In this document: positions 5,912-41,360 of the stretch, one piece after another
Position numbering within the stretch: the stretch's first letter is position 1
Layout: each line of letters opens with the position of its first letter
Source: Candidatus Staskawiczbacteria bacterium
Lineage (GTDB): Bacteria; Patescibacteriota; Minisyncoccia; Minisyncoccales; Staskawiczbacteraceae
Assembly (NCBI GenBank): GCA_049513595.1
Contig: JBEKVX010000002.1
Location: forward strand, 1-47,772
Direction: 5' to 3'
DNA: 47,772 nt
Notes under the pieces: model-generated
Seen by the model: only the letters and a program-made list of their open reading frames with translations
Told to the model about the DNA's origin: nothing
Database searches by the model: none
Position numbers and translations under genes: made by a program

Positions 5912-5929
5912 GGTTGAACCATTTTAACT

Positions 5930-15255: not shown

Positions 15256-15347
15256 AGTATCGCCTCCGCTAAGGTAGAATGACAATGTACCTGACACACT
15301 AATAGATTACCAATAAAATATATTTACGTCAATATTGACTTTTAGTA

Positions 15348-15375
15348 TTGACTTTATGGTAATAAGTTTTAGTAT
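15348..15375 (+). promoter_or_regulatory. Candidate sigma-70 promoter for the CM::MTase gene
   Basis: TTGACT (15348-15353), a 16-nt spacer, then TAGTAT (15370-15375). A second TTGACT lies 13 nt upstream. Confidence 0.45.
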
Positions 15376-15381
15376 CAATAT

Positions 15382-15405
15382 AGTTGTGTTCGTGAGTTGT
15401 GTTCG
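15382..15405 (+). repeat. Tandem direct repeat in a 5' leader
   Basis: agttgtgttcg at 15382-15392 and again at 15395-15405 (period 13 nt). Confidence 0.9.
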
Positions 15406-15451
15406 AGAACCTTGAAACTTCTAAGGGCAAGAGACACTAAGGAGATATCCG

Positions 15452-16672
15452 ATGTCCACAATCGCGGCTAATGCGAATCCGAGGTTAGATGCGTTGAGAA
15501 TTGACCTTGACAAAACAGACCGGCACATCGTCGGCCTAATGTCAAAAAGGCTCGGCCTGGTCCGCAAGATTGAAGCCGTAAAGTTTGCTAACGGTGAACC
15601 CGTCCTGGTGGAGAAAACCGAACAAGAAAAGTTGGACCGGCTGGCTGCATTCGCAAATGAAAAAGGTCTAAGCATTCCTTTCGTAAGAGGCCTTTTTTAC
15701 AGCTTGTTCTCAGAATCCTGCCGGACCCAGACAAAGCAAAGAGACCAAAGGGACGAGCAGGCATCTGCGGCTGAAGACGAAGAGACGAGATATAAAAGAT
15801 TGAAACAAAATCTTTTAGATCTCACTGAGTTGCTTGTGCCCGAATACAAAGGCACTTACAAACTTTCCTCTTTCGGGACAATTTCGTACTTGGACTTTGA
15901 GCTCGACGCCATAAAGACCCAGGTCAGCACGCTAGCATCTATGGGAAACACCAAGCTGGCAATCGATTTGGGATGTGGCGTCGGAATCGTATCCCTGAGC
16001 GAACATGTAACCCCGTTTTTCGAGCAGGTTAGAGGGTTTGACATCAGCCCCCACATGATAGGCCAGGCGCTCTGGATCAGGAATCTTACTCAAGGAGACG
16101 CCATGCGCGCGTCCTTTGAAGTTCTTGACATCGAGAAAAGATTGCCGCTGGAAGATGGCTCTGTTTCTTTCGTGGCAATGACGCTAGGAACAGCCAGCGA
16201 CGTCAAGAACATCCGAAAGGTTTTGGCATCAATAAGGAGGGTGCTGAATAAGGACGGCCGGTTTGTTCTTTCTTTCTACAACAGTGCTGCGCTGTTTTAC
16301 CGCTGGTCTCTGCCATGGGAAGTCAATCTGATGGCGGAGATAAATCCAACAGACCACTGCCTGGATGTCCACGTTGGAGGCAGGGTCTTCCAACTTTATG
16401 CCAGGCCATACACTGTCAGAGAGGTCAAAAAACTTCTGGCAGACGCGCAACTGCATGTTTCATCCGTCTCTACGTATCCTGCTTTAGCCGCCATCATGCC
16501 AAACGAATTGTTCTATGGCGTAGATGAGGCTCAAAGAGCGTCGCATCGCAAGGAAGTTCAAGCGGCTCTGCTGCAGGAACAAGAAACGAAAAGAACAATC
16601 CAGCGGATTGACAAGGGGCTGGCCGGTTCGGACATGGGCGCGTATATTCTAGTTACGGGCAGGAAAACTTGA
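15452..16672 (+). CDS. Chorismate mutase (AroQ-like) fused to a class I SAM-dependent methyltransferase-fold domain
   Basis: N-terminus LRIDLDKTDRHIVGLMSKRLGLVRKIEAVK... is the CM_2 helix pattern. C-terminus has motif I AIDLGCGVG and FDISPHM. SD AAGGAG lies 7 nt upstream. Confidence 0.75.
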   Translation: MSTIAANANPRLDALRIDLDKTDRHIVGLMSKRLGLVRKIEAVKFANGEPVLVEKTEQEKLDRLAAFANEKGLSIPFVRGLFYSLFSESCRTQTKQRDQRDEQASAAEDEETRYKRLKQNLLDLTELLVPEYKGTYKLSSFGTISYLDFELDAIKTQVSTLASMGNTKLAIDLGCGVGIVSLSEHVTPFFEQVRGFDISPHMIGQALWIRNLTQGDAMRASFEVLDIEKRLPLEDGSVSFVAMTLGTASDVKNIRKVLASIRRVLNKDGRFVLSFYNSAALFYRWSLPWEVNLMAEINPTDHCLDVHVGGRVFQLYARPYTVREVKKLLADAQLHVSSVSTYPALAAIMPNELFYGVDEAQRASHRKEVQAALLQEQETKRTIQRIDKGLAGSDMGAYILVTGRKT

Positions 16673-16696
16673 CAGCGAGCCCTGTTCTGGTAAGAT
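16669..16696 (+). promoter_or_regulatory. Candidate promoter for tRNA-Trp
   Basis: TTGACA (16669-16674, overlapping the TGA stop), a 16-nt spacer, then TAAGAT (16691-16696). Confidence 0.45.
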
Positions 16697-16736
16697 AGTA
16701 TTGTAGTTCCTTTTCCCTTCTGCAACGCAGGAAGGA

Positions 16737-16809
16737 GCCGACGTAGCTCAATTGGCAGAGCATTGGTCTCCAAAACCAAGGGTTGTGGGTTCGATTCCCT
16801 CCGTCGGTG
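16737..16809 (+). tRNA. tRNA-Trp (anticodon CCA)
   Basis: Hand-folded cloverleaf: acceptor GCCGACG/CGTCGGT, D arm GCTC/GAGC, anticodon stem TTGGT/ACCAA with loop CTCCAAA, T arm GTGGG-TTCGATT-CCCTC, discriminator G. CCA is not encoded. Confidence 0.85.
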
Positions 16810-16822
16810 TTTCACAGCGTAT

Positions 16823-16851
16823 GACTCTTCATGATGAAGAGCCTTTTTTTA
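16823..16851 (+). terminator. tRNA-Trp terminator
   Basis: ctcttc-atgat-gaagag followed by a T7 run. Confidence 0.75.
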
Positions 16852-16953
16852 TTCCCAACGCTTACGGCTTTACAGCAATAAAAATTTATGTTAAAATTTA
16901 AATACCAAATAATTTTGTCTGACGAAGCACCTTGAAAGAAAGGATCACGAGTC

Positions 16954-17337
16954 ATGATTTGCGGATTAGCATTTGTCGAAATCGTTGTTAACGATTTTGA
17001 CGCGATGGTTAACTGTTACGTCCAGGAGCTCGGTTTCAAACAAGGAAAAGCAGATAACAACGAAGACGGCCGCTGGTGTCAACTCGTAACTCCTGACGGC
17101 CAGGCCCTCATAGCATTATGGGAGCCATCGGATCCGTTGCAAAAGCCTGACCCTGCCGGAAGAACTCGTCCTTGTTTCTTGCCCATATTTAAGGTTCGGG
17201 ATATCTGTCTGCTTGTGAATAAACTGAAAACAAGCGGAAAGATAAAGATATTGGAAGAAATTAGAAGACGCCCCAAATACTGGATCACTACAATCGCCGA
17301 CCCCGAAGGAAATCATTTACAACTCTACGAAGAATGA
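16954..17337 (+). CDS. VOC (glyoxalase/bleomycin-resistance fold) family protein
   Basis: 127 aa. FVEIVVNDFDAMVNCYVQELGF ... ITTIADPEGNHLQLYE is the typical beta-alpha-beta-beta-beta VOC pattern. Confidence 0.65.
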   Translation: MICGLAFVEIVVNDFDAMVNCYVQELGFKQGKADNNEDGRWCQLVTPDGQALIALWEPSDPLQKPDPAGRTRPCFLPIFKVRDICLLVNKLKTSGKIKILEEIRRRPKYWITTIADPEGNHLQLYEE

Positions 17338-17368
17338 GCCAACAACGTTGGCGACATCTCAATCGCAG

Positions 17369-17393
17369 AACCTCGAATCCTCGAGGTTTTTTT
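17369..17393 (+). terminator. Terminator of the VOC gene
   Basis: aacctcga-atcc-tcgaggtt plus a T-run. Confidence 0.75.
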
Positions 17394-17418
17394 AAATAAA
17401 AAGGAGGCCGGGCCTCCT
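17394..17418 (-). terminator. Terminator of the btpA-like gene
   Basis: aggaggc-cgg-gcctcct, followed on the minus strand by TTTTATTT. Confidence 0.65.
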
Positions 17419-17430
17419 ATGTGATTCGTT

Positions 17431-18258
17431 TTAGATTGTCGCTTTGAAAGTTCTTACAAACTCCGCGACCTTTTGCACGTCGACTTTTTCATGAAAGTCT
17501 TTGAGGTTACGGTTTTGTTTTGGAGAAAGATATTCGCCAGCCTTCAGGGATGTGCTGACAATGATGCAGTCAGCATATTTCATCAGAAGGTCAACGTTTT
17601 CTTTGTTAGCTCCGCTCCCAATGATAATTGGGAAGGAACCTACGGCACCCCGAGCATTAGCGAGCTCGTCGATTTTCGGCGCCTCGCCCGTCCACCTGCC
17701 AGTAATTATCAATCCGTCGGCTCCCGCTCTAATAGCTTGCCGCGCGGATTCTTGGATTGGGCGTGGACGTAGCATTGTCGCGTGCTTGACCTGGATGTCA
17801 GCGAAAATGGCTACTCCTTCTGCCTGGATCTTCTTGCGAAAAGCAGTAACCTGATCCGGAGTACCCAAAATTACGCCGAACTTCGTCTCCACGTCGTCGA
17901 CGAAAACAGGGACTCTCACAAAACGGCCACCAATTACCTTGGCGATTGATAGTGCGGATTCAAAGTCGTTCCACAAAACGCTCACGCCGATCGGGAGACT
18001 TGTGCTCTCCGCTATTTTCTTGCCGAGCACGGTCATCATCTCCGTTGTTTCTGGCGAGACTTTTATCGTGTGTGGAATGTCGTAATTGTTTTCGATGATT
18101 ATCGCATCCACTCCGCCGTCAACAAAAGCCCGCAGGTCAGCGAGTGCTTTCTGTAACATAAAATCCATCCCCGGAAATTCCGGATATCCGATGAGCGGGC
18201 AAAAATGCAGAGCGCCGATAATCGGCCTGTCTGTTCCGAAAATTTTTTTCAGTTCCAT
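17431..18258 (-). CDS. BtpA/SgcQ-family TIM-barrel protein
   Basis: PIIGALHFCPLIGYP...GGVDAIIIENNYDIPH matches the N-terminal signature of the BtpA family (recognised from memory). 275 aa. Confidence 0.75.
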   Translation of the reverse strand: MELKKIFGTDRPIIGALHFCPLIGYPEFPGMDFMLQKALADLRAFVDGGVDAIIIENNYDIPHTIKVSPETTEMMTVLGKKIAESTSLPIGVSVLWNDFESALSIAKVIGGRFVRVPVFVDDVETKFGVILGTPDQVTAFRKKIQAEGVAIFADIQVKHATMLRPRPIQESARQAIRAGADGLIITGRWTGEAPKIDELANARGAVGSFPIIIGSGANKENVDLLMKYADCIIVSTSLKAGEYLSPKQNRNLKDFHEKVDVQKVAEFVRTFKATI

Positions 18259-18448
18259 GATTTTTTCCTTCCCAGGTTTACTAACATGTGCTCGACAATC
18301 GAATTGGTAGTCATAGCCAAAAAATACCGAGGTATTCCGTATCTTTTAGCTATGACCGCCCATTTGTGAATAATTTATATTTAAAAGAACTGATAGGGCC
18401 ACTTTAATACAGATTAAAAAATTTATCAATTCTAAAAAACCTGATGCT

Positions 18449-18973
18449 CTAACTATTTTTGTTTGTCCAGCTCAAAATAGTTTTCGTATTTTTTTTAATC
18501 GTAAAAAAAATTCTTCCGATAATGGCCTGGTGAACTTTGGGATTAGCATTCCCGGATGGATCTTTTATGTCTTTATGATTTTGTGTAAGTTCTGTAAAAA
18601 TGTGCATTTTATTTTTTGCATTAGGAAATTGTTTTATTAAAGAGTTTTTGGCTCCTGAATACACTTTTTTATCCATAGCAATAATTACTGCAGCTTTTTT
18701 GACTGTGGCTGGTGTAATTTTTTGAAAAAGATGATCGGCCAAATCTATATCAAAATTACGCAACGTAGGCCTAGCTGCTTCATATTCATCCGGGTATTCC
18801 TTTAAATTTTTGTGCAATGGCTTTGATGTGCCCATAGTACCCTGCAACCCATATGAAGCTACAGAAAATTTATTATCTAAATTCTTTTCTTGTAGAAATT
18901 TTGCTAAACATTTTTCAGCTATTACAGAACGATGGATATTGCCATTGCATACAAACACAATAATTTTCTTCAT
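18449..18973 (-). CDS. Low-molecular-weight protein-tyrosine-phosphatase-like protein
   Basis: P-loop VCNGNIHRS (CX5R-S) at residues 9-16 and a DP loop (IKDPSG). AT-rich, unlike both neighbours. Confidence 0.8.
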   Translation of the reverse strand: MKKIIVFVCNGNIHRSVIAEKCLAKFLQEKNLDNKFSVASYGLQGTMGTSKPLHKNLKEYPDEYEAARPTLRNFDIDLADHLFQKITPATVKKAAVIIAMDKKVYSGAKNSLIKQFPNAKNKMHIFTELTQNHKDIKDPSGNANPKVHQAIIGRIFFTIKKNTKTILSWTNKNS

Positions 18974-18990
18974 AAAATGATTATACTATA

Positions 18991-19033
18991 AAAAAATAAG
19001 GGTGGAAACCAATCAGACGGCCACCACCCTTTT
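18991..19033 (-). terminator. Terminator of the 746-aa gene
   Basis: Minus strand reads AAAGGGTGG-(18 nt)-CCACCCTT followed by ATTTTTTT. Confidence 0.7.
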
Positions 19034-19045
19034 TGCTCCGACATT

Positions 19046-21286
19046 CTAGTCGAGAACGACGATCTGCCTTGAGACACAATCGAGGATTGCACCGTGAGCA
19101 GAGGCGAGCATTTGGTACATGCTCTCACCACATCCGATGCACGCTGGCATCTGAAGCTCAATCGCCCTAATGCACATGTGCGATGCCGGACCGCCCACCT
19201 TTGTAATAATTCCCGCTGCTCCAGAATGGAATAGGAAATCATACCCTGGGTCTGCGTTCGGCAAAAGCACCAATGCATTCTTAACGTCGGTTTTCACTCT
19301 CTGATGCTCGAGCACGCACACGCGTGCTTTTACAACAGACTTTGTGATATACGACGGATTTGCTTCGGCGAATGTTATCACCCTGAGATCGGTTAAACCA
19401 GGGATAATCACATCCGGTAGCAACACAGGAGGGAAATCATCTTCGCGACTCGCCTTGAGATTGGATGAACCAACCAAGCGAACGTTAAGCTCCTCCCAGC
19501 TCAGGCAAGAAGCATCTTGCCTCGAGATGCCTCGCTGTGCAAGTTGGCGTTTAAGCTTTGTTGCGAAAAGATGTAGCGACTGAGCGAACAGAAACTTCAT
19601 CTGTTCACGGGCCTGCATGAACGTAATGACGTTCTTAAACTCGGCCGTGTCCTCAAATGTATGAGGGCGCTTTTCAAGTTTAACCACCTCCGCCCGTTCC
19701 ATCTGGGCAAAGAGGTAGTTATCTGGATCGTCCGCATAAAACTCGCCGAACACGCTGAATTGCCCAGGGCACAGATGTCCGTATCGCTGCACGAGAGTAT
19801 CGCGAGTGATAACGCCATTGCGACATGCGACTAGATCGGCCCGCATCTGCCCGTTCACAGAGTGAATATGGCCAGCAATCAGGTCGTTCAGACTCTCACG
19901 AGGGTGCATTTCCTCAAACTTGTTCTTCCAGTAGAAAGCGAGTCGCGCCATCCGGACAAACATTTCCGTACCAGTAGCAACATGCTCAAGGATGGTGTTT
20001 AGCGGAGCGTCACCTAAGGATGCTGTACGCTGCTCATAATCTTGAACATCTGCCTCGAAGGTTCCAGAATAGGATTCGGAAACGTTGCGGAAAACGGAAT
20101 CTATACGGACGAAAGCATCTCGCACAACATCCTTGTCGCAGTCATCAAGCCGCGCCTCGGCCATAATTCGCTCAAGTTTATCCCCGACGCTCATCGCATA
20201 CAGGTCGAACTCAACTCGGCTCTGAAGCGACGGGTTCTTTATGAGCTTGTCGCGATAAACGCCAACAATCCGTTCGTAAATCCTATCAGGAATTCCGCAC
20301 GGACGAAAGCTGAACGCCGTTGCCCGCATAGATGCGTATGGCTTTCCTGCCACAACCCTGATCAATCCGATGCCGAGCGGATCATATCCCATATCCCGCC
20401 GCACCTGCTCAACGATTCTGTCGGCGAACAGATGCCTAAATATTGAGATATCGAGTAACGTCGGCGAAGCTCCGAGCAACTCGCGCGGATTGATGTCGAT
20501 CATGTCGCCGAGCACATCTCCGCTAAAATCAACTGTGACAGACGAATTTAGCGACTCAATCCGCCTCAGGATCTTTTTTCCCTGCTCAATTCCAACCGCC
20601 GCAGTTTGCACTGTAGTGATTGGCCGGCATTGCAGGATGTATAACGTGCCTCTCCGGAACGCGAACTCAACATCCAAGCTGGCAGACTGAAAGTGTTGCT
20701 CGATGGCCATCATCGCACCAACGAGATGTTGAAGCCACGCGTCCTTCAAGTCTTCGGGATTTACTCCTCGGACGATCCGAATGAGCTTGCCATTTGAGGC
20801 ACCGCCGACGATGGTTTCACCAGTTCCACTCGAGACTGACACAACATAGTATCCGTCAGGCTCGGCAAGACTGTGTGAGAAAACGACGCCGCTCATATCG
20901 GCCTCAACCATTTCTTGGACAACGACCGATACGCCAGAATCGACAAGTTCAATGCTCCGATTGGCGGCGTAATGAGAAATAACTTCCTCCTTACCCGTAC
21001 CGGAAGCAGAAATCTCGTCGACCGCGACCCGAACGTCATGCACGGTTGCTGGTACGCGAAGTTTCGTTGCGTACATGCCTGCGAACGATGCGTTGGCAGA
21101 GTCTTCCTGAGCCGCACTGCTACGAACTGCGACAGTGCTACCGTTGGGCATTTCGCCCAAGAAGCTATTTATGGCCTCAACAGTTTCGCATTCAGACATC
21201 GTGGGATGCAACACCGTGAACCTAGGAACATTGATCCCGCGAATTTTTGCCAGAATAGCGAGGTTTTCAGCCTTACCGTTTTGCAT
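19046..21286 (-). CDS. PEP-utilizer-superfamily phosphotransferase (ATP-grasp N-terminus, unknown middle domain, C-terminal swivel-His domain)
   Basis: PPDK_N-like VAVRSSAAQEDSANASFAGMY and VVVQEMV. The C-terminal mobile domain has its catalytic His in GGPASHMCIRAIELQMPACIG. SD AGGAGG upstream. Confidence 0.85.
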   Translation of the reverse strand: MQNGKAENLAILAKIRGINVPRFTVLHPTMSECETVEAINSFLGEMPNGSTVAVRSSAAQEDSANASFAGMYATKLRVPATVHDVRVAVDEISASGTGKEEVISHYAANRSIELVDSGVSVVVQEMVEADMSGVVFSHSLAEPDGYYVVSVSSGTGETIVGGASNGKLIRIVRGVNPEDLKDAWLQHLVGAMMAIEQHFQSASLDVEFAFRRGTLYILQCRPITTVQTAAVGIEQGKKILRRIESLNSSVTVDFSGDVLGDMIDINPRELLGASPTLLDISIFRHLFADRIVEQVRRDMGYDPLGIGLIRVVAGKPYASMRATAFSFRPCGIPDRIYERIVGVYRDKLIKNPSLQSRVEFDLYAMSVGDKLERIMAEARLDDCDKDVVRDAFVRIDSVFRNVSESYSGTFEADVQDYEQRTASLGDAPLNTILEHVATGTEMFVRMARLAFYWKNKFEEMHPRESLNDLIAGHIHSVNGQMRADLVACRNGVITRDTLVQRYGHLCPGQFSVFGEFYADDPDNYLFAQMERAEVVKLEKRPHTFEDTAEFKNVITFMQAREQMKFLFAQSLHLFATKLKRQLAQRGISRQDASCLSWEELNVRLVGSSNLKASREDDFPPVLLPDVIIPGLTDLRVITFAEANPSYITKSVVKARVCVLEHQRVKTDVKNALVLLPNADPGYDFLFHSGAAGIITKVGGPASHMCIRAIELQMPACIGCGESMYQMLASAHGAILDCVSRQIVVLD

Positions 21287-29758: not shown

Positions 29759-29919
29759 ATTTTTAAAAAATTAATATTTAACGCAAAAACGCCCAAAAAT
29801 TGGGCGGTGGAATTTGAACTAAAAATAGTCGGGGAAGTGCCGAGAAGTGTCATAACTTCTGGTCGCACATGCGTTATTTACAATAACTTACGACTAAAAG
29901 TTCTAACATGTGCATCAGG

Positions 29920-29995
29920 CGCGGGCAGGGGGATTTGAACCCCCGATCTCCTCCGTGACAGGGAGGCGTCTTAAACCAGGCTGGACTATGCCCGC
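29920..29995 (-). tRNA. tRNA-Asp (anticodon GTC)
   Basis: Acceptor GCGGGCA/TGCCCGC, anticodon arm CCTCC-CTGTCAC-GGAGG, T arm GGGGG-TTCAAAT-CCCCC, discriminator G. Confidence 0.85.
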
Positions 29996-30011
29996 AAAAT
30001 TATTTTCGGGG

Positions 30012-30085
30012 TGCCGGGGGAGAGAATCGGACTCTCGACCTCTGCGTTATGAGTGCAGCGCTCTTACCAACTGAGCTACCCCGGC
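30012..30085 (-). tRNA. tRNA with anticodon CAT (elongator Met or lysidine-Ile2)
   Basis: Acceptor GCCGGGG/CCCCGGC, anticodon loop CTCATAA, T arm GAGAG-TCCGATT-CTCTC, discriminator A. Confidence 0.8.
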
Positions 30086-30099
30086 GTTAAAATTTAAAA

Positions 30100-30173
30100 T
30101 GGTTGCGCCGCCCCGAATTGCACGGGGGCCTGCAGCTTATGAGACTGCCGAGGTACTACTCCTCCACGGCGCG
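30100..30173 (-). tRNA. tRNA with anticodon CAT, initiator-like (C1-A72 mismatch), CCA encoded
   Basis: Acceptor CGCGCCG/CGGCGCA (position 1-72 unpaired C/A), anticodon loop CTCATAA, T arm CCCCG-TGCAATT-CGGGG, 3' ACCA present. It lacks the three G-C pairs typical of initiator anticodon stems. Confidence 0.7.
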
Positions 30174-33201: not shown

Positions 33202-33660
33202 TCATGGCCGGGGTTCCAAATCTTCCGGCCTGATTTTGTCGATCGACAGATCAGGGTCGCCCGACGAATCGAGCAAGCGCCGCCAATCGGCTCTGCTTTC
33301 GTCATCCCCTCTTTTGCATTCGGCCTCGCGCTGGCATTTGATGCAACGAGTGGCGTACGGCAGGGCGTCGAGGCGGGCCATAGGAATGTTGGTCCCGCAA
33401 TCCTCGCAAATGCCGAAGCTGCCTTCCCGCATCCGCTCAAGGGCCTCTTCAATGCGGGCCAACTCGCGGTCCTCCACTTCGGCCAGTTGAGAGCTAATCT
33501 CATCCTGGACAGAATCCAGGGCCGAGTCAACCGCGTCCCCAGGTGGCTGCCCACGGAGCTCTTTTAGCAAGCTCAAGTCGCCAGCCAAAGCCCGGCGCAG
33601 GGCTTCACGTCGCCTAACGAGGACCTGGCGAATGTTCAAAATCATATCTTTCCGGCTCAT
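33202..33660 (-). CDS. DksA/TraR-family C4 zinc-finger protein
   Basis: CEDCGTNIPMARLDALPYATRCIKC. Start set at ATG 33660 (MSRKDM) after AAGGAGG. A sampled line (33421-33480) is 65% GC. Confidence 0.75.
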   Translation of the reverse strand: MSRKDMILNIRQVLVRRREALRRALAGDLSLLKELRGQPPGDAVDSALDSVQDEISSQLAEVEDRELARIEEALERMREGSFGICEDCGTNIPMARLDALPYATRCIKCQREAECKRGDDESRADWRRLLDSSGDPDLSIDKIRPEDLEPRP

Positions 33661-33837
33661 ACTATCGCCTCCTTGACATAGGGCCCAATATACAAGAATC
33701 AAAGATCAACATTTACCCTCACACCAAATTTTGGTTGTGACGGGCAAATTTGATTTTAATACTTTTCCGAACTTTGTCAATATACACGCTCCAATCAAAA
33801 AAGCCCGCTTTCGCGAACTTTTTTCATAAAATTATTT

Positions 33838-35199
33838 TTATTTCTCAATTAATTTTTCAACTTTTTGTTTCGCTTCATCTAATAACTCCTTTGCTTTTTT
33901 TCGGGCAATATGAGATTTCCTTACCAACTCAGAAATTTTTTGCTGAATATTATTTTCTAATTTGGGTAAAATAATTCTCCTTAAAGAAGAACTTGGTATC
34001 GCAGTTAAAATTGTACCTTGCGCTTCTCTCATTAATAATGATTTTATAATCAAAGATTTTACTAAAATTAAATTCACTTCTGGTTTAAAATATTTTTCTT
34101 TCAATATAAAAAATCCCGTCGAACCAACTAAATCTTTCACATCCTCATCTATTAAGGCGACTTTATCGGTTGAACCCTCAACAGAGGAAACAATCACATC
34201 ATTTTTTTGTAATTTCATTCTTGCTCTGCTCGGCAATTCTTTCCCTTTTATTGTTTGAATGTTATCAACCATTCCCAAATTTTCATTCACATCTGCCAAT
34301 TCAATATATTTATATTCTTTTTCCGGATTGATTTCAATTTTTTTATTCGATACTTCAATTAAATTGTCGAAACTATCAAAACCGTTTCTGTAATTTCTAA
34401 TTTTTGAAACTAATTTTTCATATTTTGATTGAAAATATTCCGCATCCATTCTGTTCGCATTTTTCAAATCGGATAAATTTGCAACACTAAACAGGCCTTC
34501 CTTGTTTTCAAAATCTTTCAATCCTAATTCTTCCAAAAGCAAACTTTCTGCTTGAGAATATAACGACTCGCTTTGTTCTCTAAATTTTATTATCTGTTCA
34601 TATAAATCTAGAAAATAAACTTGGTCTTTTTTCGTAATTAATGGTATTTCAATGTTCTCGATGTCAACCACATTTAATTTCAATTGTATGTTACCGCTTG
34701 CTTTTTGGAAAATTTGAGATTGTCCATATTTACTCAAAAGAAAAAATAATAAATAAACCTTTTCTTCTTGTGATAATTTTTTAAATCTAATACCTATGTT
34801 ATTTTCACTTATATTTACTTCTCCTAGATCATCCGAAATAACTGAAAGTCTGCCTACCGTCGCAATTTTTGAAAGCACAATATCTCCTGGCATTAAGTGG
34901 GTAGAAAAAATTCTTTTATGTTCTTCCGGAGAAATATAAACTAAACTATTTTTATTTATAAAAATATCCGAGATATCCCCTATTCTAATAAAAGGAATCC
35001 CCTCGGTTCTATACGATTCACTTTTTAATGTAGAACCGAAGGGGCCACTAAAAACTTTCTCTGCAAAATCTTTTAACGGCTTTGATTTTTGAGATTTAAT
35101 CTTCAATACCGAATTTAAATATTCCGGCTGATAATATTCAGCATCAAGCCGCAAAGCTCCTTCCAATTGAGATTTTTTAATTATTGAATAGGTAATCAT
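33838..35199 (-). CDS. hsdS: Type I restriction-modification specificity subunit
   Basis: Two TRD halves separated by conserved helical spacers (LDAEYYQP... / MDAEYFQSKYEKL...). ATG at 35199 preferred over the TTG at 35220, which would overlap the upstream gene. Confidence 0.85.
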   Translation of the reverse strand: MITYSIIKKSQLEGALRLDAEYYQPEYLNSVLKIKSQKSKPLKDFAEKVFSGPFGSTLKSESYRTEGIPFIRIGDISDIFINKNSLVYISPEEHKRIFSTHLMPGDIVLSKIATVGRLSVISDDLGEVNISENNIGIRFKKLSQEEKVYLLFFLLSKYGQSQIFQKASGNIQLKLNVVDIENIEIPLITKKDQVYFLDLYEQIIKFREQSESLYSQAESLLLEELGLKDFENKEGLFSVANLSDLKNANRMDAEYFQSKYEKLVSKIRNYRNGFDSFDNLIEVSNKKIEINPEKEYKYIELADVNENLGMVDNIQTIKGKELPSRARMKLQKNDVIVSSVEGSTDKVALIDEDVKDLVGSTGFFILKEKYFKPEVNLILVKSLIIKSLLMREAQGTILTAIPSSSLRRIILPKLENNIQQKISELVRKSHIARKKAKELLDEAKQKVEKLIEK

Positions 35200-35200
35200 T

Positions 35201-35821
35201 TTAATGTATATTTTCGTCAATTTTAATCAATCCAGCCTTCATTAATGTTTTTACGGTCTCACTTATAATTCTGTACATACTTAAAATATTTTGTCTTGCC
35301 TTATCGATTGTGTCTATCGGTTCTCCATCAAAATGAGCAGGAGTGTGCCGATAATAATGTAAAAACCTCTTCATTTCATTGACCATGTCTTTTATGTGCA
35401 TTTTTTCTTCGTTATCTAATGTTTTTGACTCTTTGGTTTTATTTCCAAGTTCTTTCAGTAAATTATCTATCGTTTCGTCTACCTTTTCTTCGTCAAAATA
35501 AGTTCCAACAAATTTAGGATTACCAGACGACGGTAGATTCAAATCTTTCGCTATTTGAAATAAAAATCCTTCGAAAGCCTTATAAGCAGGCGCTGTGAAA
35601 AAAGAAAAATCGTTGAATCTTTCCTTAAATTGTTCTTTCCATAAAATATCCAAATTTAATGAGTCTGCCAAGTGATTAATTACTCTTTCACTCAGATAGT
35701 GTAGGACAGCCATATCAAAATGATTGATTAAATCTCTTGTCGGTTGTTGTTTCCTCGCACTCCCTATGATTTGCGGGTAACTAGTACGTAAATTATATAT
35801 ATTTTCAAAATATTTACTCAT
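35201..35821 (-). CDS. Hypothetical protein with an Rx4H (HEPN-like) motif
   Basis: 206 aa, predicted helical. Motif YYRHTPAHF near the C-terminus. Sits between the protease and hsdS with gaps of 5 nt and 1 nt. Confidence 0.45.
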   Translation of the reverse strand: MSKYFENIYNLRTSYPQIIGSARKQQPTRDLINHFDMAVLHYLSERVINHLADSLNLDILWKEQFKERFNDFSFFTAPAYKAFEGFLFQIAKDLNLPSSGNPKFVGTYFDEEKVDETIDNLLKELGNKTKESKTLDNEEKMHIKDMVNEMKRFLHYYRHTPAHFDGEPIDTIDKARQNILSMYRIISETVKTLMKAGLIKIDENIH

Positions 35822-35826
35822 CTTTT

Positions 35827-36558
35827 TTATTTAACTTGATCAAATGAACTAATCAAAAAATCCTTCGCAATATTAATTGGTTGAGCAAATCCAATGTTTG
35901 TAAATATTTCAACTGGTTCTCCATCAATTATTAATCTTGGCGGTCTGCCCTTCATAAATGGGTCAAATCTACCCTTAATAATCGCTATTACATCGTTAGA
36001 GCCAGGGATAAAAACGGGTGCTCCACTATTTCCACTTGCTGTAACTGCGTCTAATTGTACTAATTCAACCGGACCCCCAATACGATTTTTTCTAAAGGCG
36101 CTTATAATACCCCTTGTTGCCGATGGCCTAATATCGCCACTTAATACGGTACCAAAAGGAAAGCCAACAAATGCAATATCTTGACCTTCTTGCAAATCGG
36201 AAGAATCTCCTAGTTTTATTTCTGATAAATTTTCTAAAATCGGGTTAATTTTTTCAATAATTATCTTAATTACTGCTAAATCTTTTTCAAAATCTACTGA
36301 AATAATTTTTCCAGGAAAACCCATCGGACCGTTTTCAGACATTATACCAATTTGTAACTGTGCGTCATTTCTGATCACGCCATTTTTAGATATTACATGA
36401 GCACACGTTGCAATCAATAAATTTTCTTTTGAGTATAAAAAGCCTGTGCCAACAATTGAGAGTTTATATGAGTTAGTAAAAATATCATGTTCGTTAAAGG
36501 CTATTGGAACGACAGACGGCTTAATTATTTTTATTGCATCTATTAGTATGTTTTGCAT
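35827..36558 (-). CDS. Cytoplasmic trypsin-like (S1) serine protease
   Basis: Triad contexts TCAHVI (His), DLAVIKI (Asp), GNSGAPVF (Ser). No signal peptide or PDZ domain. Confidence 0.8.
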   Translation of the reverse strand: MQNILIDAIKIIKPSVVPIAFNEHDIFTNSYKLSIVGTGFLYSKENLLIATCAHVISKNGVIRNDAQLQIGIMSENGPMGFPGKIISVDFEKDLAVIKIIIEKINPILENLSEIKLGDSSDLQEGQDIAFVGFPFGTVLSGDIRPSATRGIISAFRKNRIGGPVELVQLDAVTASGNSGAPVFIPGSNDVIAIIKGRFDPFMKGRPPRLIIDGEPVEIFTNIGFAQPINIAKDFLISSFDQVK

Positions 36559-36580
36559 AATTTTAAAAATTAGTTATTTA

Positions 36581-38524
36581 TTAAAAATTAAATTTTTGTT
36601 TTTTGGCGAAGTCGAAAAATGCTTCGGCGATTTCGTCTAAATCGTGGTCTAAAATTTTTCTGCCTTTTTGGTCGTGGATGTAGTTTCCGTTTGCATCTTT
36701 TTTATAAATGTAATCGCCGGAGTTGTCTTTGCCGGCTTTTTTGGAGACCGCCATAAAAATTGGATAATCTTTTAACAATTCGCCGGATTTGCCTCCCCAT
36801 TTTTGCAAAAATAAAACAGATGTTTTTGTTCCGGTGTGCGGTTTAAAAGTATTTCCGTGCAAGCCCACAACTGCCAAAATTCGCGCTTTATCAAAAAGAT
36901 ATTCTCTTACATATTCCATGCCGGTATTATTTAAGACACCTTGAGGTAAAACAATTGCCATTCTTCCGCCCGGCTTTATCATGTCTAGCGTTCTTTCTAT
37001 AAATAAAATATGGCGTTCAATTTTGTTAACCAATTTTCCTTTTTTTCTGCCAAACTCATATTGCCTTAATAATCCTTGGTCTTTTATTTCTCCTGCAAAT
37101 GGCGGGTTTGTCAGCAGAACGTCAAATCCAAAATTTTTAAAACTTTTTTTATTTTCTTCTTCCTCGGCGTAGTCCTTAAATTTTTCGAGCCGTTGTAAAA
37201 GTTCACTTCTTGCATGTAATTTATCTTTATCTTCGCCTTGCCATTCTCTTGTGTCTAAAGAATTTAATTTAAATAAATGCGACCTGCCGTCACCGGCAAT
37301 TAACATCAGCGCCCTTGAAACCTTGGCGGTTTCATCGGCAAAATCAATTCCATAAAGATATTCTTTTGCGTAGTCCTGTTTTTCTAATTCCGACTTCAAA
37401 TATTTTTCTTTTACATAATTCATACAAGCAATTAGAAATCCGCCCGAACCGCAGGCAGGGTCAATAACATATTCGTCTTTTTTTGGATTTAACATTTTTA
37501 CGGCCATTGCAATTGCATGCCTTGGCGTAAAATATTGCCCTTTTTTGCCTTTTGCAACTTCAGGAATTAAATATTCAAACGCTTCGTCAATAACCATCAA
37601 ATCCGAACCAAAAAGTTTTGTCTTTTCCATTTCTCCAATCACAATTGCCAAATGCTCTGGGGAAAGACGAATATTATCCTGCTCAAAAAAAGTTCCAGGC
37701 CATTTTTTAACTGCCGAATGAAACAAATTATTTATGGCAGAAAAAGTTTTATTTGGGTCTTTATATTTTCTGAATAAAATCTCTTCGCCGTCCCTTTTTT
37801 GCGCCTCTATTTCATCAAATAATTTTGCATATATCAATTTAAAAATTTCTGTGAAAACATCCACTCCGGCGTTTGCCAAAACCAATTCTTCAATAATTTT
37901 AATACTTTCTTTCAAGTCGGTTTTTGGGTCTAAATCGTCTAACGTTTTCTTTTCAGATAATAAGTCATCAATTGTTTTGCTTGCCGAAGGAATTTCCGAA
38001 AGAGTGTCTTCAAAATTATTAGGATAATTTCTATACAAAATTGTTTTTACTTCGCCGTTTGACCAAACGCCAATTTCGCAGCCCTCGGCGTTTAGATAAC
38101 TTTTTAGTTGGTCAATTCCTTTTTCAAAGTTTGGTTTTTTAACTTCAATAATAATGTATGGAGTTATTTTGTCATTTTTATAAACAACGATGTCGGCTCT
38201 GGCAAATTCCTTTGAGCCAAAATGAACGCTTTTTTCTGTGTCAATTAAATCAAAAGGATAACCATAAAATTTGTTTAATTTATAAAGCCAAAGCTGTCTT
38301 ACAATTTCCTCTGGTTTTCCGCTTTGTTTTGATTCGTCAAAAACAAACCTCTTACTGCCGGATTTTAAATCTTTCAGATAAAATCTGTCTTTTTCTTCTT
38401 CGGTTATTGTTAAAATATTTTCAATGTCAAAATCCTTAAATTCTTTTAAGCTGTAAATAGTTTCTGAATCATGGAAAATTTTATTAATTATTTCCTTTGT
38501 CTTGTTAATTTTTTGCGTTGGCAT
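36581..38524 (-). CDS. hsdM: Type I R-M N6-adenine methyltransferase with an HSDR_N-like PD-(D/E)xK N-terminal domain
   Basis: VIDPACGSGGFL (AdoMet site), LLTNPPFAG (NPPF). The N-terminal about 190 aa includes RADIVVY...YIIIEVKKP. Confidence 0.9.
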   Translation of the reverse strand: MPTQKINKTKEIINKIFHDSETIYSLKEFKDFDIENILTITEEEKDRFYLKDLKSGSKRFVFDESKQSGKPEEIVRQLWLYKLNKFYGYPFDLIDTEKSVHFGSKEFARADIVVYKNDKITPYIIIEVKKPNFEKGIDQLKSYLNAEGCEIGVWSNGEVKTILYRNYPNNFEDTLSEIPSASKTIDDLLSEKKTLDDLDPKTDLKESIKIIEELVLANAGVDVFTEIFKLIYAKLFDEIEAQKRDGEEILFRKYKDPNKTFSAINNLFHSAVKKWPGTFFEQDNIRLSPEHLAIVIGEMEKTKLFGSDLMVIDEAFEYLIPEVAKGKKGQYFTPRHAIAMAVKMLNPKKDEYVIDPACGSGGFLIACMNYVKEKYLKSELEKQDYAKEYLYGIDFADETAKVSRALMLIAGDGRSHLFKLNSLDTREWQGEDKDKLHARSELLQRLEKFKDYAEEEENKKSFKNFGFDVLLTNPPFAGEIKDQGLLRQYEFGRKKGKLVNKIERHILFIERTLDMIKPGGRMAIVLPQGVLNNTGMEYVREYLFDKARILAVVGLHGNTFKPHTGTKTSVLFLQKWGGKSGELLKDYPIFMAVSKKAGKDNSGDYIYKKDANGNYIHDQKGRKILDHDLDEIAEAFFDFAKKQKFNF

Positions 38525-38537
38525 AAATTTATTTTTT

Positions 38538-39173
38538 TTAATTTATTGATCGCCATGTTCCCTTTTTAAAAACTGAAATTACTTTACCAATAATTTCCAT
38601 ATTATCTCTAAAAGGGATGTTTTTGTACTTCGGATTTTCTGATTTTAAATAAACGTATGGCGGCTTATCTTCTGAAACAAATCTTTTAACCGTTCTGTCT
38701 CCAGCAACATCGGCTAAAACAATATCTCCTGAAACAAACTCTTTTTGATTTTGAATTAAAACCGCATCACCGTCTTCAATGTTGGCGTTAATCATAGAGT
38801 CGCCAATAATTTTTATTAAAAACACATCCTCCTTGAGTTGGGCCACATCTGTTGAAACTTCCTGCCATTCTCCAGAAATTTCTAACGCATCTATTGGCGA
38901 CCCGGCGCTCGCCGAACCCAGCATGGGAATTAAAGGGTTTCTTTTTAAAATTTTATTGCCAAGCGGCAAAATGGTTAAACTTCTTGCAGACGCCTCGTTT
39001 TTTTTCAAAAGTTTTTGTTCTTCTAATTTTTTTAGAAGATCAATAATTGATTGATTCGAAACTACGCCTAAACTTTCCCGCATTTCTTCAAATGTTGGAG
39101 GATAGCCCGTGTCTTTAATATAATTGTAAATAATCTCTAATAATTGTTTTTGTCTTTTTGTAATTTTTTCCAT
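38538..39173 (-). CDS. lexA: LexA-type repressor (winged-helix plus S24 peptidase)
   Basis: KRQKQLLEIIYNYIKDTGYPPTFEEM... DNA-binding domain. GDSM (Ser) and VKRF (Lys) dyad. Start set at ATG 39173 (MEKITKRQ); the longer track ORF overlaps the promoter. Confidence 0.8.
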   Translation of the reverse strand: MEKITKRQKQLLEIIYNYIKDTGYPPTFEEMRESLGVVSNQSIIDLLKKLEEQKLLKKNEASARSLTILPLGNKILKRNPLIPMLGSASAGSPIDALEISGEWQEVSTDVAQLKEDVFLIKIIGDSMINANIEDGDAVLIQNQKEFVSGDIVLADVAGDRTVKRFVSEDKPPYVYLKSENPKYKNIPFRDNMEIIGKVISVFKKGTWRSIN

Positions 39174-39179
39174 TAAATC

Positions 39180-39209
39180 ATTATAACTGACTAAAAGGTC
39201 GGGTGTCAA
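39180..39209 (-). promoter_or_regulatory. Consensus sigma-70 promoter giving a leaderless lexA mRNA
   Basis: Minus strand: TTGACA (39204-39209), an 18-nt spacer, TATAAT (39180-39185), then 6 nt to the ATG at 39173. Confidence 0.65.
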
Positions 39210-39230
39210 TATTCAAGGATGTGAATAACT

Positions 39231-39253
39231 AAAAAACCCGTGGAAACGGGTTT
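39231..39253 (-). terminator. murJ terminator
   Basis: Minus strand reads AAACCCG-TTTCCA-CGGGTTTTTT. Confidence 0.75.
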
Positions 39254-39269
39254 ATTGTATGCCCTCGAT

Positions 39270-40919
39270 TTATTTCCCTGGGTATAAAAACTTTTTGAGG
39301 AATGAGTTGATGATTATCTTGTTTTCGGGAGACTTCAACAAGTGAGTGGCGAGGGTGTAGGTTGCGACGCCAACGAGGCCGGAGGCGATGAGTTGGAAAA
39401 ATATGCCCCAAAAGGTTTGCAAACTTACAATTGAGCCGAGCAATTGGCGCACGCCAAAAGTTATAACAACCATTATCAAACTGGCGATTGCGATTTTATA
39501 AAGAGAATTTAAAATTTCTTTTGCATCTTTTAATTTTGGAAACTTTTTGTAGAAAAAATATAAAAGCAAAGAACTTTCTAAAATTGCGGTGATTGCATAA
39601 GCCAAAGCCAAACCAATTACGCCAACATTTGCAGCGCCTCCCAAACGCAAAAAATTCTGCAAAAATAAATAAAATCCGGGCGAAATTTTTATAAGCCAAA
39701 CAAGAAGCAAGCTCAATGCGATGTTAAAAGCAACCGTGACTCCACTGATGATTGCCGGAATTTTTGTGTTGTGGGCAGCGTAAAATGTTTTTGACAGAAA
39801 TAAAATAAATGCCTGGGCAATTAAGTTAAATGCCAAAATTGCCAGGCAGGCAGTCACCAGTTTTGTGTCCGACCAATTAAATTTTCCAACGCCATAAATT
39901 ACCCTGACAATCTGGGCTCTTAAAATTAAAAGCAGCAAACTTATTGGAACTGTCAAAAAAATTATCTGCCTGAATATGCTGGAAAACTTTCTTAAAAAAT
40001 CTTCGTGGTCTTCTTTTAAAAAAGCCATGGACATTGACGGAAAAGCAGCCGTAGAAACAGAAACCGCAACTGCGTTTACCAAAATCGATGATAAATTATT
40101 TGCCAGATTAAAAACTGCGATACTGCCTGCCATCAAAGTTGAAGCAATGGCTGTGGTGGCAATTGTGTTGAGCTGCCCTGCTCCCAAACCCAAAGACCTT
40201 GGCACCATAAGTTTTATTGTTTTTAAAACTCCCGGGTCTCTGAAATTAAAATTTAGCCGATATTTAAATCCCGAATGGAAAAATACCGGCAATTGGATTA
40301 ATAAATGCAAAATTCCGCCAAGCACCACTCCCCACGCCAATCCTGGCAAACCAAAATGTGGAACAAAAAATAAAATGCCGATTATTATTCCGCAATTGTA
40401 AAGCAAAGGAGCTACAGCTGTTACCAAAAATCTGTTAAAAACCTGTAAAATTCCTGAAATCATGTTTGAAGCGCCCAAAATTATGGGGCTTAAAAACATA
40501 ATTCGCATCAACATAATTGCCAATTCCCTTTTTTGTCCTGAAAATCCGGGGGCTGTTATTGAAATTATTAGCGGAGTAAAAATTATTAAAATTATGCAGA
40601 CAATAATTAAAAAAGATAAAAAAACATTTAACAAAGTTGAAACATATTTCCACGCTTCCTCTTTATCTTTAATTAAGTATGAGCTGAATATAGGAATTAC
40701 TGCGGCGGCAATTGCGCCAAAAATTAAAATTAAGGCAATAAAATCAGGAACGGTAAATGCCGAATAATAAACATCCAACTGGCTGCCGGCGCCAAAGGTT
40801 CCGGCCAACAAGCGGTCGCGTAACAAACCCAAAACCGCCGACAGCAAATAAGAAATCGCCAAAATTAAAGAAGCAGAACTGATTGATTTTGTCTGCGAAT
40901 TAAGAAAATTTTTTGACAT
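39270..40919 (-). CDS. murJ: Lipid II flippase MurJ
   Basis: About 14 TM helices. N-terminal pattern SASLILAISYLLSAVLGLLRDRLLAGTFGAG..LDVYYSAF is typical of MurJ/MviN. ATG at 40919 preferred over the track TTG. Confidence 0.9.
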   Translation of the reverse strand: MSKNFLNSQTKSISSASLILAISYLLSAVLGLLRDRLLAGTFGAGSQLDVYYSAFTVPDFIALILIFGAIAAAVIPIFSSYLIKDKEEAWKYVSTLLNVFLSFLIIVCIILIIFTPLIISITAPGFSGQKRELAIMLMRIMFLSPIILGASNMISGILQVFNRFLVTAVAPLLYNCGIIIGILFFVPHFGLPGLAWGVVLGGILHLLIQLPVFFHSGFKYRLNFNFRDPGVLKTIKLMVPRSLGLGAGQLNTIATTAIASTLMAGSIAVFNLANNLSSILVNAVAVSVSTAAFPSMSMAFLKEDHEDFLRKFSSIFRQIIFLTVPISLLLLILRAQIVRVIYGVGKFNWSDTKLVTACLAILAFNLIAQAFILFLSKTFYAAHNTKIPAIISGVTVAFNIALSLLLVWLIKISPGFYLFLQNFLRLGGAANVGVIGLALAYAITAILESSLLLYFFYKKFPKLKDAKEILNSLYKIAIASLIMVVITFGVRQLLGSIVSLQTFWGIFFQLIASGLVGVATYTLATHLLKSPENKIIINSFLKKFLYPGK

Positions 40920-41003: not shown

Positions 41004-41008
41004 GTTGT

Positions 41009-41360
41009 CTCAGCAAGACTATAAGCCGAATTCTGTATTATGTGATCATCTGTCTGTTCGCGACATTGCTGTCGGAATCAAGCGAACTACTTTTAACAGA
41101 ATTTCGAGATGTATTTAACCCAATTTTCTGCTTTGTTCTTGCACCCAATAAGGATTTAGCCGTTTCATTTTTACATTGCTGTAAAACTATTCCGCGAAGG
41201 AATGCCAGATCTTTCGATCTGAGCCGTTTCTGTTCGCACCTCGCATCTTACGATGGACGGCCGTTAGCCGCTATTTTTTTACCCTGAACCTTGCGGTCGG
41301 GTGGTGTTCGGACTTTCCTCCCCAAACTTGCGTTTGAAGCGATCACTCATCTTGCTGAAA
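41009..41360 (-). ncRNA. rnpB: RNase P RNA (bacterial type)
   Basis: Minus strand has P4 strands GGGGAGGAAAGUCCGAAC and ACAGAAUUCGGCUUAUAG. P1 pairs UCAGCAAGA (5') with UCUUGCUGA (3'). About 352 nt; the overlapping + ORF 41042-41287 is spurious. Confidence 0.85.

Follow-up and report, generated by a model that had tools for sequence, protein, structure and literature searches.

We analysed a 47,772-nucleotide (nt) stretch of DNA from a Candidatus Staskawiczbacteria bacterium (contig JBEKVX010000002.1; the whole stretch is hereafter the window), which carries an operon of five minus-strand genes at 33838-39173. In order of transcription, these encode a LexA repressor, a nuclease-methyltransferase fusion (the RM subunit of a restriction-modification, or R-M, system), an S1-family protease, a HEPN protein of the RnlA/LsoA type and an HsdS-like specificity subunit (Table 1). 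The intergenic gaps, as read from the sequence, measure 13, 22, 5 and 1 nt. Both this packed layout and the five gene identities had been put forward in an earlier note made without database searches (the original prediction); the sequence bears out the former, while hidden Markov model, PADLOC and profile searches recovered all of the latter. The order lexA-RM-HEPN-hsdS recurs at 11 distinct loci, so the arrangement is not due to chance. We read the locus as a LexA-repressed restriction operon, recurrent in Patescibacteria, whose cargo effectors would be induced by DNA damage, and give this reading a probability of about 0.6.

Table 1. Features of the lexA-headed operon and its borders in the window
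Feature	Position	Strand	Description
lexA	38538-39173	minus	211 aa, ATG start; in the mechanical list of open reading frames (ORFs) the frame runs on to a TTG at 39209
RM subunit gene	36581-38524	minus	647 aa; PD-(D/E)xK nuclease fused to a gamma-class N6-adenine methyltransferase
S1 protease gene (cargo gene 1)	35827-36558	minus	243 aa
RnlA/LsoA-type HEPN gene (cargo gene 2)	35201-35821	minus	206 aa
hsdS-like specificity subunit gene	33838-35199	minus	453 aa from the ATG at 35199
Sigma-70-type promoter	39180-39209	minus	TTGACA 39209-39204, 18-nt spacer, TATAAT 39185-39180
Palindromic operator CCGACCTTTTAGTCAG (presumed LexA box)	39187-39202	minus	consensus CyGAC-N6-GTCrG; inside the promoter spacer, reaching one base into the -35 hexamer
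DnaA-box-like element TTATTCACA (TTATCCACA in most relatives)	39220-39228	minus	just upstream of the -35 box
Intrinsic terminator of murJ, the gene before lexA (upstream operon limit)	39234-39253	minus	terminator scan; 8-bp stem, then T run
Hairpin and T run after hsdS (probable operon terminator)	33797-33824	minus	RNA fold

The lexA gene, its promoter and its operator

The protein at the head of the operon is a canonical LexA, which scores 154.7 bits against TIGR00498 (equivalog cutoff 110.95). It consists of a winged helix-turn-helix DNA-binding domain (PF01726, 49 bits) and an S24 autopeptidase domain (PF00717, 91 bits). As read by inspection of the translation only, the Ala-Gly cleavage site (SASAG/SPI) is intact, and so are the serine of GDSM and the lysine of VKRF, which make up the catalytic dyad. 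The closest relatives, at 90% identity, again come from Candidatus Staskawiczbacteria.

The lexA promoter is the sole 12/12 match to the sigma-70 consensus across 33500-39500, and the scan for terminators and promoters found no strong internal signal of either kind within the operon comparable to it. Its -10 box ends 6 nt before the lexA ATG, so the operon mRNA is probably leaderless. The related loci share this architecture, with 5-10 nt, usually 6, between the -10 box and the ATG. The palindrome in the promoter spacer reads CCGAC-N6-GTCAG in the window and is the only exact match to its consensus there. It is conserved in about 20 of 21 lexA loci, where its distance to the ATG is constant at ~29 nt, and in ~350 kb of collected loci strong matches are essentially confined to lexA promoters. 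We presume this palindrome to be the LexA box. The tie between the operon and an SOS-type repressor, one of the claims of the original prediction, is upheld by the single strong promoter, the conserved operator before lexA and the lack of strong internal signals; one promoter with a LexA-type operator in its spacer would thereby drive all five genes.

Additional operator copies were also considered. Seven one-mismatch matches occur in the window (1.1 expected), most of them inside genes, and none is convincing; the near-match at 41060-41075 falls within the RNase P RNA and is no operator. Neither recA nor any other SOS gene carrying the operator was seen in the window. In a related locus (L028), recA (818-1822) lies 3.6 kb from lexA on the opposite strand and closes an ftsK/rodZ-like gene run. 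This run and lexA have their promoter region, operator included, in common, so that the operator may there control recA divergently.

The restriction-modification enzyme

The second and the last gene of the operon encode the two subunits of an R-M enzyme. The RM subunit matches HSDR_N_2 with 80 bits and N6_Mtase with 134 bits, and its closest solved protein is RM.BsaXI (8w0p, E = 1.8e-31), which aligns over residues 222-576, that is, over the methyltransferase part. Among 16 RM orthologues, residues E97, D111, E127 and K129 of the nuclease and NPPF (473-476) of the methyltransferase are invariant. The spacing of the nuclease residues, E97, D111 and E127-x-K129, resembles that of E73, D90 and E105-x-K107 in BsaXI (PMC11997821). 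The HsdS protein is a full-length match to Specificity_I of PADLOC (2e-39) and contains two target-recognition domains; Pfam Methylase_S gave no match to it at E < 0.01, while the orthologues do match. When hsdS is compared with its counterparts in L032 and L034, the closest relatives of the operon (LexA 90% and RM 91-92% identical to those of the window), DNA homology is kept only in the conserved N-terminal, central and C-terminal segments. This pattern indicates that the recognition domains have been swapped relative to L032 and L034.

A Pfam scan of ten long ORFs of the window found no helicase, translocase or HsdR domain. The original prediction was thus right that HsdR is missing, but the system is not incomplete or unusual on that account. 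In the Type IIB enzymes BsaXI and BcgI, nuclease and methyltransferase share one subunit, the DNA is read by a second, HsdS-like subunit, and there is no translocase (PMC11997821; PMC3592470). Judged by gene content, RM and S form a complete and self-sufficient Type IIB-like enzyme, presumably of the (RM)2S kind, so the missing HsdR is not odd. A classical Type I system with its HsdR outside the window was also considered, and was rejected because no HsdR adjoins the cassette in related loci that extend 5-8 kb to either side and because RM has its own conserved nuclease. Homologues on plasmids of cultured bacteria are likewise unaccompanied by HsdR, occurring as an RM and S gene pair in Klebsiella and as a fused RMS protein in the cyanobacterial Picosynechococcus.

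The likeness to BsaXI and BcgI ((RM)2S or A2B) covers the single polypeptide for cleavage and methylation, the separate HsdS-like subunit with two recognition domains and the lack of an ATP-dependent translocase. Unlike RM.BsaXI with its 916 aa, however, RM has only 647 aa and hence probably lacks the C-terminal 'paddle'. Moreover, in contrast to both enzymes, the RM and S genes are split by cargo genes and all of them stand behind lexA.

Cargo genes and the slot they occupy

The 206-aa product of the second cargo gene had been called a HEPN protein on the basis of its Rx4H motif, and our searches support the call and refine it to the RnlA/LsoA type. On its own the protein reaches 24.6 bits against PF19034 (RnlA-toxin_DBD), just under the 27-bit cutoff, while 29 of its 51 relatives match that family. 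A profile of the 51-member family aligns with residues 191-335 of LsoA (5hy3), the entire HEPN domain with both motifs, at E = 1.8e-10. Besides M1, the only residues invariant among the 51 relatives (17-57% identity) are E84, R158 and H163, the last two being the ends of the Rx4-6H motif R158-HTPA-H163. These three correspond to E258, R318 and H323 of RnlA, which are required for RnlA activity (PMC8266594). Structure prediction, which had been proposed as a check, gave an all-alpha AlphaFold2 model (predicted local distance difference test 81.6, predicted template-modelling score 0.83); homology was settled by the profile-sequence search instead of by Foldseek. The protein is predicted to be a metal-independent RNase.

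The HEPN family is tiny, with 68 representatives of 58-275 aa among 1.84 billion proteins, and none of the 68 is a full-length (~350-aa) RnlA-like protein. All named or labelled source records seen for it are assemblies of Patescibacteria (the candidate phyla radiation, CPR), and no homologue was found in phage, plasmid or IMG/VR viral contig collections. The likeness to RnlA-RnlB and LsoA-LsoB thus lies in a homologous HEPN domain with the equivalents of E258, R318 and H323 invariant. Unlike RnlA and LsoA, the protein has only ~200 aa, comprising the HEPN domain and a short N-terminal extension, and it lacks the TATA-binding-protein-like (TBP-like) N-terminal domain and the NRD domain; nor is there an RnlB-like antitoxin gene, as the operon has no spare ORF for one. 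Membership in the RnlA-RnlB toxin-antitoxin systems was rejected on these grounds.

The product of the first cargo gene is a stand-alone S1 protease of the trypsin/HtrA type (Trypsin_2, PF13365, 71.5 bits), with a triad, H54, D93 and S178, that is invariant in 21 homologues. It has no PDZ domain and no evident signal peptide, the latter judged by eye only, and is predicted to be an active cytoplasmic protease. Conserved active sites are intact in all four enzymes of the operon. L032 and L034, the closest relatives, do not carry the protease gene, but homologues of it are embedded in three other R-M loci. In L030 it stands in the order lexA-RM-protease-hsdS, in L029 it follows lexA, a gene of unknown function and an N6_N4 methyltransferase gene, and in L031 it lies between a Type III-like methyltransferase gene and a helicase gene.

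Comparison with related loci shows that the two cargo genes occupy a variable slot. The HEPN-anchored loci comprise 26 from genome and metagenome scans and two from look-ups; L027, which appears to be an inverted or chimeric Logan contig, was left out. Between the window and L032 or L034, DNA identity of 83-84% extends from 39236 to 36580, where RM has its stop codon, breaks off there and is found again from 35199, at the start codon of hsdS. In place of the two cargo genes, L032 (4229-5203) and L034 (9594-10583) carry an unrelated gene of 324-329 aa, which has no significant Pfam match and no PADLOC match and may be a new defence gene. The slot measures 634-2003 nt in 14 loci and is always bounded by the RM stop and hsdS start codons. 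Its contents are of at least nine different kinds. A ClpP-like gene (L005, L012), a PBECR3-like gene (L011, weak Pfam match), a DUF3800 gene (L017) or nothing stands between RM and the HEPN gene, and genes of unknown function stand between the HEPN gene and hsdS at some loci. Other slots contain the HEPN gene alone or the S1 protease gene alone, an NYN RNase gene (L039), or a complete Pycsar system within a lexA-headed operon (L038, 9629-10943; PycC cyclase 222 bits, PycTM effector 86 bits). The cargo genes are all co-oriented and tightly spaced and have no promoters of their own. No conserved repeats or att-like sites were seen at the slot borders or at the right end of the cassette.

The protease and the HEPN protein are independent effectors in this slot, not a conserved pair. 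The original prediction had treated them as an effector pair and looked to their co-occurrence in other genomes, but a tblastn search with the protease gave no match in the 26 HEPN loci, and the three protease loci have no HEPN gene, an outcome that the original prediction had itself listed as refuting. Each of the inserted genes does recur separately inside R-M loci elsewhere, which agrees with another part of that prediction. In partial support of a pairing, a serine protease of a different family, the ClpP-like one, is encoded directly upstream of the HEPN gene in L005 and L012.

The HEPN family is also found outside the Type IIB-like cassettes. A member with 57% identity (L002) stands beside a non-homologous R-M system with an AlwI/HNH nuclease and two methyltransferases, another (L004) stands beside an RM remnant only, and three (L007, L020 and L021) have no adjacent R-M genes. 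Short remnants of the R-M genes accompany the intact HEPN gene in two of these loci, namely the 3' end of hsdS in L002 (ELIEK and a stop, ~5380-5390) and the 3' end of RM in L004 (...FAKKEKLIF and a stop, ~350-400), which implies that these cassettes lost or replaced their R-M genes and kept the HEPN gene.

This distribution bears on the PrrC-like guard that the original prediction had favoured. In such a guard, the RM/S complex would physically hold the HEPN RNase, the protease or both latent, and they would be released when a phage inhibits or overwhelms the R-M system. As in PrrC/EcoprrI, the HEPN RNase gene is embedded among methyltransferase and specificity genes, and a two-layer reading, DNA restriction followed by RNA attack, is applicable to both. 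The HEPN gene sits wedged between RM and S, its 1-nt and 5-nt gaps are suggestive of stoichiometric co-production, RM-HEPN-S stays together at 11 distinct loci and the operon has no antitoxin-like ORF, all of which would suit a guard. HEPN genes in R-M operons are a known theme, with at least 16 HEPN clades linked to R-M and a latency mechanism proposed for them, although the RnlA/LsoA clade was placed outside it (Anantharaman et al. 2013, PMC3710099). Unlike PrrC and RloC, on the other hand, no ABC-ATPase domain is fused to the HEPN domain, there is no hsdR and the context is not Type Ic. In addition, the HEPN family here occurs with different R-M types and without any, the protease family occurs in Type IIB-like, Type II and Type III-like loci, and the slot can carry a self-contained Pycsar system. 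Docking to one specific R-M complex is hard to reconcile with so many contexts, and we found no specific support for a guard, which we regard as unlikely.

The sharp borders of the slot could instead mark a neutral hot spot, where RM and hsdS, through their conserved 3' and 5' ends respectively, serve as anchors for homologous recombination and capture defence genes that are unrelated and autonomous. Their transcription together with lexA and the R-M genes would then be incidental, and the protease and the HEPN protein would each have triggers of their own. Swap boundaries that coincide exactly with the stop codon of RM and the start codon of S, the wide range of slot lengths and contents, and the complete Pycsar system in L038, a system type able to work alone against phage, are all as expected of such a site. 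However, the 206-aa single-domain HEPN protein and the 243-aa bare protease have no sensor domain and would therefore need external control. The co-orientation, tight spacing and lack of own promoters also argue against autonomous genes, and a hot spot leaves unexplained why five types of R-M system (see below) hold the operon position behind lexA. We consider it rather unlikely.

The proteases in the slot might instead serve restriction alleviation or housekeeping, the protease removing the RM nuclease or LexA fragments and the RNase trimming the operon mRNA, such that the damaged and transiently unmethylated chromosome is protected during the SOS response. Two unrelated protease families, S1 in the window and ClpP-like in L005 and L012, occupy the same spot just after RM, and degradation of HsdR by ClpXP in Escherichia coli is an established precedent (PMC4231737; PMC11109961). 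Most cassettes, however, lack a protease, induction would raise the nuclease along with its supposed remover, and other slot contents (Pycsar, NYN and PBECR3-like) are typical defence or toxin genes. Such a role appears very improbable.

Coupling of lexA to restriction and defence

The constant partner of the operon is lexA, not the protease or the HEPN gene. We sampled seven LexA homologues, chosen only for their long contigs, from the 120 most similar LexA proteins (>=61% identity), and all seven lexA genes have R-M genes immediately downstream on the same strand, at a distance of at most 23 nt. Four of these are Type IIB-like RM-[cargo]-S modules. The remaining three are an NmeDI-like methyltransferase-nuclease with a second methyltransferase, a gene of unknown function with an N6_N4 methyltransferase gene, and a 5-methylcytosine methyltransferase with R.HinP1I and Vsr. 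The two methyltransferases and AlwI/HNH nuclease of L002, which are followed by the HEPN gene, constitute a fifth kind of R-M system behind lexA. Overall, no more than 23 nt separate lexA from the gene that follows it in 20 of 21 loci.

Upstream of the operon, the neighbouring gene is murJ (PF03023, 266 bits). Downstream of hsdS, folding of the RNA of 33780-33840 gives a 12-bp stem, with -15.8 kcal/mol for the whole 61-nt piece; this hairpin was not called by the consensus terminator scan. The gene directly downstream (33202-33702, minus strand) encodes a DksA/TraR-type zinc-finger protein and has a promoter-like site of its own (11/12, 33780-33753); with a G+C content (GC) of 58%, compared with 29-37% in its neighbours, it looks recently acquired. 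Just upstream of the lexA promoter, the DnaA-box-like element, written (G)TTATCCACA(G), occurs with one mismatch at most ~55 nt before the lexA ATG in 15 of 21 lexA loci (14 by script and L029 by eye); the loci that carry it include L001, L002, L005, L006, L017, L023, L029, L032, L036, L037 and others. DNA homology with L032, L034, L036 and L040 starts at 39233-39236, that is, at this element, which could reflect co-regulation by DnaA or the boundary of a module.

Everything from the DnaA-box-like element to the hsdS stop codon may alternatively be a mobile R-M cassette, in which LexA is mainly its own controller, like the C protein of Type II systems, and not a global SOS regulator. The homology with relatives does begin sharply at the element and ends at the hsdS stop. 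The flanks differ despite 90% identical LexA proteins, with murJ and dksA in the window, rve integrase and PRiA4 genes in L032, and clpB and mraZ in L034, and no flanking ORF is common to the 20 or more loci. The confinement of the operator motif to lexA promoters in the ~350 kb of loci would also fit a private controller. Against this, LexA is very widespread and well conserved in the group, with more than 1383 homologues at E < 1e-20 vs 64 for the HEPN protein, and the same kind of lexA head precedes non-homologous R-M modules, which makes lexA look like the resident and the R-M system the visitor. Additionally, no integrase, repeats or att sites bound the block, and the SOS regulon reported for Patescibacteria (see below) also speaks against a private LexA. 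We therefore hold a mobile cassette under a private LexA to be quite unlikely.

For the LexA-repressed operon, we propose the following sequence of events. In a resting cell, LexA would bind the palindrome and keep the operon at a basal level sufficient for methylation and restriction. When foreign DNA is cut to double-strand fragments or replication is damaged, RecA filaments would trigger self-cleavage of LexA. Derepression would then raise the level of RM and S and release a burst of protease and RNase together, and these two would form a second line of defence against phage, toxic or abortive in nature.

Several observations weigh against this sequence. Not every cargo gene is found behind lexA, since the protease locus L031 and the HEPN loci L007 and L020 have no adjacent co-oriented lexA, and the LexA-like gene of L021 is divergent. 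The seven of seven may describe a LexA subfamily and not all Patescibacteria, because the sample was drawn from the nearest 120. The operator was assigned from symmetry, position and conservation only and is to that extent putative. As for the predicted RNase, the HEPN protein departs from RnlA in that the equivalent of R255 is a lysine (K81, invariant in 32 closer relatives), and its model gave no significant Foldseek match in the PDB, RnlA having the top probability of 0.82-0.85 at E ~1 and a template-modelling score of 0.45. Finally, a toxic RNase and protease released at every episode of DNA damage appear costly.

DNA-damage-responsive repressors that head or adjoin defence operons are known, including the WYL regulators CapW/BrxR and the CapH-CapP pair of CBASS, and lexA-headed cassettes also exist, such as lexA-imuA-imuB-dnaE2. 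Like CapW/BrxR and CapH-CapP, the repressor described here would be a damage sensor that stands first in, or beside, an operon and keeps its expression low until damage occurs. Unlike them, it is a canonical LexA (TIGR00498 equivalog) placed in control of an R-M enzyme and swappable effectors. Sanchez-Osuna and colleagues are said to have reported an SOS regulon of Patescibacteria in 2017. In the full-text literature searched, whose scope excludes that work (Sanchez-Osuna, Barbe & Erill 2017), the likeliest to bear on the question, we found no description of lexA-R-M operons in Patescibacteria and none of a canonical LexA heading an R-M system with a cargo slot.

The best NCBIfam matches of RM and S are MAD2 (311 bits) and MAD5 (126 bits) of the methylation-associated defence system (MADS). 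MADS operons run from a regulator through a methyltransferase and other genes to a specificity subunit, with MAD6, MAD7 and MAD8 mandatory (bioRxiv 10.1101/2023.03.30.534895), and the operon described here has the same order. Assignment to MADS was rejected, as the two scores compare with cutoffs of 720 and 400, respectively, and MAD6-8 are absent.

Other features of the window lie apart from the operon. Genes of ~50% GC in this ~35% GC genome are found at 14254-21286, including a class I Trp/Tyr-type tRNA synthetase (14254-15297), a chorismate mutase-methyltransferase fusion (15452-16672) and a PPDK_N/PEP-utilizer protein (19046-21286), which suggests a mosaic of transferred genes or a chimeric assembly. 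At 4121-10495 on the minus strand, the gene for a cohesin-domain protein (596 aa) adjoins that for a 1521-aa protein with a dockerin domain at its end; for an ultra-small bacterium, this is a surface pair of cellulosome-like type. The window also contains the RNase P RNA (41006-41358, minus strand, 121.6 bits), located between murJ and downstream genes, and four tRNA genes (Trp, Asp and two Met; 16737-16809 and 29918-30173).

Patescibacteria make up a large share of bacterial diversity, have genomes of < 1 Mb with few regulators and, as cited in PMC12455944, are mostly without CRISPR; their resistance to phage is poorly known for these reasons. Extending our reading from this operon to the group is tentative, and we place it somewhat below even odds: across much of the Patescibacteria, LexA may have as its chief operon partner a swappable R-M module with a cargo slot and not a DNA-repair gene, with the SOS response doubling as an alarm of innate immunity. 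Cutting of foreign DNA would then activate RecA, RecA would bring about LexA cleavage, and restriction together with abortive effectors would be induced. New defence genes of uncultivated bacteria can be sought by a simple rule, namely inspection of the interval between the stop codon of RM and the start codon of hsdS; if our reading is true, this slot would be a source of unknown ones such as those for the 324-329-aa proteins of L032 and L034. The RM and S pairs likewise amount to a stock of compact Type IIB-like enzymes whose specificities have been shuffled naturally. Together, a canonical LexA, the complete restriction enzyme wired to it and exchangeable effectors (RNase, protease and Pycsar) would constitute a compact two-layer immune circuit driven by DNA damage.

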